DNA of 43,168 bases from a virus, in IMG/VR virus record IMGVR_UViG_3300001865_000266, positions 1-43,168 of that record; one strand, written 5' to 3'. The position numbers and the translations under genes were made by a program. This document shows, one piece after another, positions 36,296-39,567 of this stretch; within the stretch, counting starts at the first letter, position 1, and every line of letters starts with the position of its first letter. The notes under the pieces are model-generated. The model did no database searches and was not told the DNA's origin. It worked only from the letters and a program-made list of their open reading frames with translations.

Positions 36296-36387
36296 TGGAC
36301 GACCCTGGAATCGAACCAGGAATTAAATTTACGATTGAATAATTGTCGTTGTGTCTTTTGAGTTTACAAGATAACCCTGTGCCGTCC
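36296..36387 (-). ncRNA. tRNA-mimic RNA 1 (acceptor stem plus T-arm, non-tRNA interior)
   Basis: GGACGGC/GTCGTCC-A acceptor; CCTGG TTCGATT CCAGG T-arm. Confidence 0.65.
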
Positions 36388-36438: not shown

Positions 36439-36514
36439 AGGCCGTGGTCGGATTTGAACCGGCGATCTGCTGCTCACAAGGCAGCCGCATTAAACCAGAC
36501 TATGCTACACGACC
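36439..36514 (-). tRNA. tRNA-Thr(UGU), atypical (G37, C50:A64), no encoded CCA
   Basis: Cloverleaf GGTCGTG/CACGGCC, D GCAT/ATGC, anticodon arm GCTGC-CTTGTGA-GCAGC, T-loop TTCAAAT. Confidence 0.8.
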
Positions 36515-38568: not shown

Positions 38569-39027
38569 TTAAAAAGGATACATCTCAATAATCTTATAAT
38601 GATTGGTGAGTTTATCCTGAACACTGACCGGTCCATTCCACTTACCATCAAGAGTATGAGGTAATCGAGACCATGGAACAATTCTGTCCACATGCAACTG
38701 ATAAGGATTATTTTTCCAATATGGTTTATAATCAATCACAGCATTGTAACGTTTACCATTCCGTTTCGATTCAACACGTAACAGAAAAACAGTATTCTCT
38801 TCAATAAAATGTTCAGAATCAAGATTCCTCTTGATGAATCGTTTTAATGCAATTCCGATTTTGGATCTGTTTCGGAATAATTGTTGAGTCTTTGGTAGAA
38901 TATTATTGATTCTTGCTTGGTTTTCAATTTCACGTTCAGCTTTTAACTGGGCCTGTTCCTCTTCATATTGTTTTTTCAATTTCAATTCCTCTTCCTTACT
39001 AATACGAATCTGTTCAACTCCAATCAA
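38569..39027 (-). CDS. Hypothetical protein
   Basis: TTG start overlapping upstream stop; 152 aa. Confidence 0.6.
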   Translation of the reverse strand: MIGVEQIRISKEEELKLKKQYEEEQAQLKAEREIENQARINNILPKTQQLFRNRSKIGIALKRFIKRNLDSEHFIEENTVFLLRVESKRNGKRYNAVIDYKPYWKNNPYQLHVDRIVPWSRLPHTLDGKWNGPVSVQDKLTNHYKIIEMYPF

Positions 39028-39155
39028 CCTAAAACCCCCTCACGCATTAATCTAGCAATCCTCATCTGTTTCTCAAGCTCTGCCTCCAACTGCTCATCAA
39101 CCCTCGCAGCCTTAGGCGTTTCCTTATACCTTCTAATAACTACATTTCCCTCCAT
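39024..39155 (-). CDS. 43-aa first gene of early transcript (not in track)
   Basis: GGTGA SD; MEGNVVIRRYKETPKAARVDEQLEAELEKQMRIARLMREGVLG. Confidence 0.55.
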   Translation of the reverse strand: MEGNVVIRRYKETPKAARVDEQLEAELEKQMRIARLMREGVLG

Positions 39156-39221
39156 CTAATCACCAACTATGTTTTTTTAAACTAAACAAAACTCAGAACA
39201 CGCGTCTGAGAAATAAAGAAT

Positions 39222-39357
39222 TGGACAGTCTGGGATTCGAACCCAGGTAACAATTTGGCGTAGGATAGGTTAGGATTAAATTACGGCTATTAATTTAATC
39301 CATGGTGTAAAAGATCAAAAAACAAGAAATAATTTAAGTTACCCACCAAGGACCGTC
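39222..39357 (-). ncRNA. tRNA-mimic RNA 2 (acceptor stem plus T-arm around a structured insert of about 100 nt)
   Basis: GGACGGT/ACTGTCC-A acceptor; CTGGG TTCGAAT CCCAG T-arm; GTAAC/GTTAC helix; GGATTAAATTA/TAATTTAATCC hairpin. Confidence 0.65.
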
Positions 39358-39567
39358 CAAAAGAAATAAAAATATAAATTTTGTGTTCACTATTTCACTC
39401 ATCGCCGGAAGCCTTTTTTTATGTGTAATTCCCGTGTCCATCACCTGTGGTTCATTTTGGATATTAGGTTTTCGCTTCAAACACACATCCTTAAGACACT
39501 TACAAATTCCGTCCAGGTCTATCCTGAACCCAAGTGCCTATGACTTTTAACTCTCTATATTATAGTT

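Follow-up and report, generated by a model that had tools for sequence, protein, structure and literature searches.

A covarying tRNA-like RNA in the early-operon leader of an archaeal provirus and its possible maturation by tRNA-processing enzymes

What may be the role of an RNA that carries the acceptor stem and the T-arm of a tRNA, has a structured insert of about 85 nt where the anticodon arm would be, and stands in the leader of the early operon of a provirus? The question is raised by a locus on the minus strand of an IMG/VR provirus record of 43,168 bases, which was analysed over its whole length (hereafter, the window) and has nearly all of its genes on that strand. The element, named RNA2 in the following, had been singled out in an original prediction as a tRNA mimic with a tmRNA-like layout, in a virus for which an archaeal host was guessed, and with a short segment that might pair with the leader in the manner of the C4 and CI RNAs.

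The guess on the host was correct. The window encodes a structural set including tail sheath, baseplate J, portal, large terminase and an SU10-type capsid protein, a tail-associated protein in which pseudomurein-binding and Pei endoisopeptidase domains are found together and, at its right end, a tyrosine integrase; judging from this gene content, the virus is a temperate myovirus of a pseudomurein-walled methanogen of the order Methanobacteriales. The same virus is present, integrated, in a 393-kb host contig (L039) and in a 47.8-kb contig (L038), in which the tail and lysis genes run straight into the integrase, with the two ends joined. Comparison of these contigs places the host-virus junction (locus positions about 5783) within the 3′ end of an MFS transporter gene and not in a tRNA gene, the shared sequence beginning there with ATGGCCAACAG…. 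The small proteins encoded in the neighbourhood of RNA2 receive no function from Pfam and PHROGs.

RNA2 extends over positions 39222..39358 (minus strand, as are all features of the window given below), i.e. 137 nt read directly from G+1 to the discriminator A73. Its parts follow one another as GGACGGU, CCUUGGUGG, GUAAC, 36 nt, the hairpin GGAUUAAAUUA-AUAGCCG-UAAUUUAAUCC, 21 nt, GUUAC, CUGGG-UUCGAAU-CCCAG, ACUGUCC and A. The 5′ strand of the acceptor stem (GGACGGU, 39352..39358) forms seven out of seven pairs, one of them G.U, with positions 39223-39229 of the 3′ strand, which is read as ACUGUCC plus the discriminator A39222 (39222..39229). The T-arm (39230..39246) has a perfect stem and a canonical T-loop, and acceptor and T-arm together make up a 12-bp stack of the tRNA type, the anticodon arm being replaced by the insert. 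The T-stem is abutted directly, without a variable loop, by the 3′ strand (GUUAC, 39247..39251) of a further helix, helix II, whose 5′ strand (GUAAC, 39338..39342) follows the D-loop analogue CCUUGGUGG (39343..39351). U8 and the 4-bp D-stem are both missing from RNA2, and the GG of the D-loop analogue could form an elbow contact with the T-loop. Within helix II are found the single-stranded block UUUUACACCAU (39302..39312), the insert hairpin (39273..39301; 11 bp, with the 7-nt loop AUAGCCG at 39284-39290) and the block CCUAACCUAUCC-UACGC (39258..39274), which includes CUAUCCU. Both sides of RNA2, i.e. the 5′ flank and the 3′ trailer, are U-rich, and CCA is not encoded, as is also the case in the virus's own tRNA-Thr gene.

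Every part listed in the original prediction (acceptor stem, GG-containing loop, GTAAC/GTTAC helix, 11-bp hairpin with 7-nt loop and T-arm) is found, and of its boundaries, 39222-39357, the 3′ end was kept, with the 5′ end moved one base further to G39358, which is needed for the seventh acceptor pair. The layout is beyond chance: when the whole window was scanned for strict matches (all 7 acceptor pairs formed, no more than one of them G.U, all 5 T-stem pairs and a T-loop of the form TTCRANY), RNA2 and a sibling element, RNA1 (36387-36297), were the only matches, with 0.06 matches on average in shuffled windows.

Evidence on the nature of RNA2 comes from a related virus. The contig L037, of metagenomic origin (JGI), was reached via a conserved early protein of 152 aa, with 61% protein identity, and contains in the syntenic place (L037:1230-1362) a 133-nt RNA of the same architecture, to which a covariance model built on the window sequence alone (R1) assigns 53.5 bits (E about 1e-10), the window itself scoring 183 bits. 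In the alignment of the two RNAs, 98% of the pair cells are standard and 11/28 pairs are changed on both sides, counts that refer to two distinct sequences only and to an alignment fitted to the structure; sliding the partner strand by one column, as a control, leaves 50-52% paired and 1-2 pairs changed on both sides. The acceptor stem (GGGAUC/GGUCCC in L037) has four of its seven pairs changed on both sides, with A73, G1-C72 and G2-C71 kept and pairs 3-7 not conserved, and the T-stem (AAAGG/CCUUU) has three out of five. The equivalent of helix II is CAAUC/GAUUG, with two of the five pairs changed on both sides, one changed on one side and none broken, and the stem of the insert hairpin is cut down to GGGUG/CACCC, with two compensatory pairs. 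Identical in both viruses are the T-loop, the hairpin loop AAUAGCCG, all 11 positions of UUUUACACCAU, the block CCUAACCUAUCC(N)UACGC, in which a 1-nt insertion in L037 is the sole difference, and the motif UGGURGG of the D-loop analogue.

Overall, 47% of the paired columns and 75% of the unpaired ones are identical, which indicates that the stems drift with compensation and the loops are held. That the same shape is reached through compensating base changes in a related virus argues that RNA2 is real: on the signature of a functional fold left in this pair of sequences, it is a genuine, selectively maintained, virus-encoded tRNA-like RNA. The term tRNA mimic is thereby strengthened, and the structural conservation on which the original prediction had staked itself is present in all four helices.

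RNA2 closes the long untranslated leader that precedes the early operon, with the Shine-Dalgarno (SD) sequence of the first early gene 58 nt further on (about 20 nt in L037, where the RNA ends 30 nt ahead of the start codon). In the window, it is followed by a terminator-like hairpin, CUCAGA-CGCGUGU-UCUGAG and then UUUUGUUUAGUUU (39178..39210), by the SD GGUGAU with the AUG of the first early ORF (39153..39164; 43 aa, ORF 39024-39155) and by the gene of the conserved 152-aa protein (38569-39027); directly after the L037 RNA come a 45-aa ORF and a 150-aa protein, homologues of the two. Upstream of RNA2, a conserved A/T-rich motif includes TTTATATT (39371..39378), which is either a TATA box or a U-tract, and its context is conserved in L037 as well as in six more distant relatives (L112, L114-L118), found via their SSB-like and 152-aa proteins. 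The order shared by the window and L037 is leader, A/T motif, RNA, SD, small ORF and 152-aa homologue. From the A/T motif to the first base of the element there are 13-20 nt in the window and 10-17 nt in L115, which is probably too close for the canonical archaeal TATA-to-start distance and suggests that RNA2 is transcribed as part of the long leader, in which case an endonuclease would be needed to generate its 5′ end.

In the six distant relatives, the arrangement starts with TATATA-type repeats, a leader of about 250 nt beginning with GGUACAAAAC and the A/T-rich motif (…ACAACAAAUAAU.AUAUUUUU), and it ends with a structured RNA slot, SD, small ORF and 152-aa homologue. The slot is occupied by other RNAs. 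In five relatives (L112:3261-3342; L115:1607-1694; L116:1733-1827; L117:2184-2272; L118:543-658) it holds an RNA, termed family B, which is closed by GUGGAAAUCUUAG…CUAAGACCAC, has no T-arm, and contains the interior motifs CUUAUCC and a C-rich one (ACCUCC/CCCCC); its closing helix covaries, being UCCUGG/CCAGGA in L116 and GUAG…CUAC and CCUUUG/CAAAGG in L118. L114 carries yet another element, closed by GGGG…CCCC and likewise devoid of a T-arm. Identity between RNA2 and family B is about 50% and confined to an A/U-rich stretch, and no Rfam family matches the leader and slot RNAs of the relatives. In the loci compared, the tRNA-like ends are a lineage-specific solution in a conserved leader slot, and the RNAs without T-arm in the slot of L112 and L115-L118 imply that tRNA-type processing is no general requirement of the leader. 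As to the leader itself (39380-39560 in the window, and its equivalents in L037, L112 and L114-L118), it follows TATATA- or GAGTTAC-type repeats that resemble operators and has blocks conserved within subgroups, such as GGAGCGUUUACCAGUAAAGGACUGCUAACCAUAAGCGGUGACGAUGGCUCAUAAAAAAAAGG in L112, L114 and L118; a further structured RNA may be present here.

Further members of the RNA2 family were sought in several ways. ARAGORN and Rfam at the gathering threshold do not call RNA2 in the window, where they only find tRNA-Thr(UGU) at 36439-36514, of the tRNA family RF00005. BLAST of RNA2 against 328 Methanobacteriales species genomes returned no copy, the only matches being T-arms of tRNA-Ile; indeed, 18 nt (C39247-G39230, the T-arm and the base preceding it) are identical in the tRNA-Ile(GAU) of the host order, the acceptor stem of which differs. 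When 151 genomes from across the Methanobacteriales were sampled with a second covariance model (R2), none yielded another member, and the family thus looks rare among the genomes searched. The exact 3′-end pattern of RNA2 had no match in viral contigs, two degenerate multi-block patterns, run on viral and metagenome contigs, brought up nothing other than chance matches, ordinary tRNAs and tmRNAs, and the RNA2 pattern with two mismatches allowed returned only noise from the genomes. With the neighbouring proteins as anchors, no homologous locus was found in viral contigs, and the integrase led to one distant locus in a Methanobacterium metagenome-assembled genome (MAG) and to nothing else. In the literature searched, no archaeal virus was found to carry, in its early leader, a conserved RNA of tRNA-like shape with a large structured insert.

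Two other RNAs of these viruses deserve a description of their own. RNA1 (36296-36387, minus strand) has the acceptor stem GGACGGC/GUCGUCC, A73 and the T-arm CCUGG-UUCGAUU-CCAGG, is devoid of an anticodon arm, and lies about 50 nt past tRNA-Thr(UGU), ending in U6 just ahead of an SD; its counterpart in L037 (5777-5876) has the same placement, a fully different yet paired acceptor stem (GGCGCAA/UUGCGCC) and a weaker T-stem. At the place corresponding to the tRNA-Thr of the window, L037 (5560-5730) bears a tRNA-Tyr(GUA) that has the pair C1-G72 and is interrupted by a 97-nt intron with a bulge-helix-bulge motif at its borders; ARAGORN recognizes this tRNA only after removal of the intron.

What RNA2 does can be approached from the features that it has retained. 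These are the ones that shape-recognising tRNA enzymes read, namely the 12-bp stack, the T-loop, a GG as elbow partner, A73, U-rich flanks and a 3′ end without encoded CCA. Since the sequence of the acceptor is not conserved and the geometry of the stack and A73 are, enzymes that read shape are suggested, and not a specific aminoacyl-tRNA synthetase; the conservation of the insert, in turn, implies a further ligand, be it protein or RNA. The reading that we prefer, at a probability of roughly one half, is that RNA2 is a module of the t-element type, processed by RNase P, tRNase Z and the CCA-adding enzyme, with a conserved insert for such a ligand. The host enzymes of tRNA end processing would treat RNA2 as a pre-tRNA: RNase P would cut at G39358 and tRNase Z after A39222, where CCA would next be attached by the CCA-adding enzyme. 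The RNA released in this way would be stable and about 140 nt long, and the leader would be separated from the early mRNA, whose 5′ end would be set, in t-element fashion, by the cut after A39222; the insert would contact an additional partner (protein or RNA) or serve as a switch. Among the points against this reading are the insert, since a plain processing signal would not need 85 conserved nucleotides, and the missing U8 and real D-stem.

An alternative emerges from the predicted folds. Both RNAalifold and the minimum free energy (MFE) structures of the two RNAs pair the GGURGG of the D-loop analogue with CCUAUC in place of forming helix II. Thermodynamics thus favours GGURGG:CCUAUC, whereas covariation favours helix II, the competing helix (6 bp) having a single one-sided change and no covariation support. 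The two helices have one base in common in the window and lie side by side in L037, and on these models they may form a pseudoknot or represent alternative states, i.e. the preference of RNAalifold suggests that the tRNA-like fold may be one of two. RNA2 might then be a cis-acting leader switch, similar to a riboswitch or an attenuator, in which the tRNA-like and the non-tRNA-like folds control read-through or translation of the early operon. The location of RNA2 between U-tracts in a regulatory leader, and the presence of other structured RNAs in the same slot of the relatives, would be in keeping with it. However, the two helices could coexist as a pseudoknot, no ligand or sensor has been identified, and the terminator-like hairpin that follows RNA2 is not conserved in L037, which together make a two-state leader a possible but unlikely explanation.

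A regulatory role in trans must also be considered. The RNAs of the type of P4 CI and of P1/P7 C4 resemble RNA2 in that they are small and are encoded, as P4 CI is, in an untranslated operon leader belonging to a temperate element. RNA2 could accordingly be an immunity or regulatory RNA cut from the leader of its own operon and base-pairing through its single-stranded blocks, which are conserved in sequence. C4 RNA is, moreover, matured by RNase P, of which it is a substrate (PMC11143913). P4 CI and C4 act, however, by clear and repeated complementarity to leader targets, and RNA2 has no such complementarity above chance. The complementarity between CUAUCCU and AGGAUAG of the leader (39519..39525, minus strand), proposed in the original prediction as a pairing of the C4/CI type, does exist, but as a target pairing it is not supported: it is only 7 nt long, shuffling of the leader gives complements to RNA2 of at least 8 nt in 74% of cases, and in L037 the motif CCUAUCC is retained without a complementary leader site. 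An antisense action against its own leader is therefore ruled out; CUAUCCU, on the other hand, belongs to the family-conserved block that is able to pair inside RNA2 with GGURGG.

The wider search for targets in trans gave no better result. On the viral sense strand, no complements to block C of the insert are found in either virus, and those to block A occur at chance frequency only; among 41 Methanobacteriales genomes, no 12-mer complement that is conserved is found beyond the level of the reversed-pattern control. A separate observation concerns the distant relative L116, in whose leader, about 246 nt upstream of the slot RNA, AAGGAUAAGA is a perfect 10-nt complement of UCUUAUCCUU in that RNA. 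L116 is the only relative with such a match, which would speak for an action in trans, but a match of this length is reached in 7.6% of shuffles. On balance, we regard an RNA of the CI or C4 kind as quite improbable.

The tmRNA-like layout put forward in the original prediction stands as a layout: the acceptor stem, the short stemless loop with GG, the helix closing around the remainder and the T-arm recall the tRNA-like domain of tmRNA, and all are kept in L037. tmRNA is a bacterial system, and its other hallmarks that were looked for are not found. At position 3:70 there is A3-U70 in the window and G3-C70 in L037, i.e. the alanine identity pair G3.U70 is present in neither. There is no conserved tag reading frame, AAUAGCCG and the insert blocks falling in different frames in the window and L037. 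ARAGORN calls neither a tmRNA nor a tag peptide for RNA2, and the Rfam tmRNA model (RF00023), at a permissive threshold, gives 14.1 bits against a gathering cut-off of 47 bits, with only the T-arm and the short loop aligned. A search for SmpB (PF01668) that detected it in 10 bacterial genomes used as control gave no match in the window or in the Methanobacteriales genomes G134 and G138. In the Methanobacterium MAG used as search centre (G001), a SmpB gene is found on contig C114 (70482-70901; E 7e-50), but the same contig also has a tRNA with an encoded CCA and is probably a bacterial contamination of the MAG. With its 137 nt, against about 350 nt, and without pseudoknot series, tag ORF and SmpB, RNA2 differs from tmRNA, and the 3:70 pair, the frames, the 14-bit score and the failure to find SmpB rule this reading out. 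More broadly, a functional mimic, either charged or acting as a binding partner of translation or defence factors (as an aminoacylated acceptor, a decoy for toxins that target the acceptor end, or a ribosome-rescue RNA), could draw on the intact stack of acceptor and T-arm, the canonical T-loop and the conserved A73, G1-C72 and G2-C71; set against the lack of G3.U70, the drift of acceptor pairs 3-7 and the insert without a conserved frame, it is very unlikely.

The last alternative, a decaying or intron-interrupted tRNA gene, or a relic of a tRNA-derived attachment site, with no function of its own, could appeal to the T-arm shared with tRNA-Ile(GAU) and to the intron-bearing tRNA-Tyr that ARAGORN misses in L037, but it has hardly any chance of being right: the compensatory changes show selection on the RNA fold; a bulge-helix-bulge search of both RNA2 copies gave no spliced product called a tRNA, although it recovered the tRNA-Tyr with its 97-nt intron as positive control, which rules out an intron-containing decoding tRNA; and the provirus junction, 3.8 kb away beside the integrase and inside the MFS transporter gene, rules out an att relic. 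In agreement with this, when single deletions are tried by brute force, none turns the L037 copy into a called tRNA and those made in the window give inconsistent anticodons; likewise, the bases flanking helix II are not conserved (UUAAAUU in the window vs AACACUG in L037).

A bolder proposal than the preferred reading of a processed module with an insert for a ligand, and one that we consider speculative and doubtful, is that RNA2 is the first regulatory RNA of an archaeal virus in tRNA disguise. It would be matured from the early leader by the host RNase P, tRNase Z and CCA-adding enzyme, its insert (UUUUACACCAU, the AAUAGCCG loop and CCUAACCUAUCC-UACGC) would bind a host or viral factor or toggle between the tRNA-like and the GGURGG:CCUAUC folds, and it would thereby set the lysis-lysogeny decision. 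If so, the lysis-lysogeny switch would be coupled to the state of the host machinery for tRNA processing or translation. Archaeal viruses have hardly been explored for non-coding RNAs, and accounts of gene regulation in methanogen viruses have to date dealt with proteins alone; the paper on MSTV1, for example, makes no mention of tRNA or non-coding RNA (PMC11375127). A covarying tRNA-shaped RNA at the start of an early operon offers a testable case of an archaeal virus borrowing the tRNA maturation enzymes of its host and, together with its sibling RNA1, may represent a device that is common among the viruses infecting methanogens of the gut and rumen.

Processing signals shaped like a tRNA have been described before, as have tRNA-like RNAs of viruses. 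A close parallel to RNA2 is found in the t-elements of Haloferax volcanii, upstream of 5S rRNA, and of plant mitochondria, which consist of the top half of a tRNA, acceptor and T-arm, with no decoding function. RNA2 has the same coaxial stack of 7+5 bp with a canonical T-loop and likewise borders directly on another functional RNA, for which it would set the 5′ end. The Haloferax t-elements are cut by tRNase Z and RNase P (PMC4326828), and the non-tRNA substrates of RNase P include phage C4 RNA and other tRNA-like RNAs (PMC11143913). Unlike t-elements, RNA2 is viral, is found in an early leader of the lysis/lysogeny type and has a conserved structured insert of about 85 nt, its cleavage being predicted only.

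As for viral RNAs, the ‘species 1 and 2’ RNAs of phage T4 are stable, non-decoding tRNA-like RNAs co-transcribed with the phage tRNAs. Like RNA2, they are encoded by a virus, shaped like a tRNA and non-decoding, and they are located beside true tRNA genes. A catalogue of tRNA-like molecules of the T-even phages exists, as cited in PMC11143913. The T4 host is, however, bacterial, there is no sequence relation, and RNA2 stands alone in a leader, outside a tRNA cluster; it is the sibling RNA1, rather than RNA2, that fits the comparison with the T4 species better.
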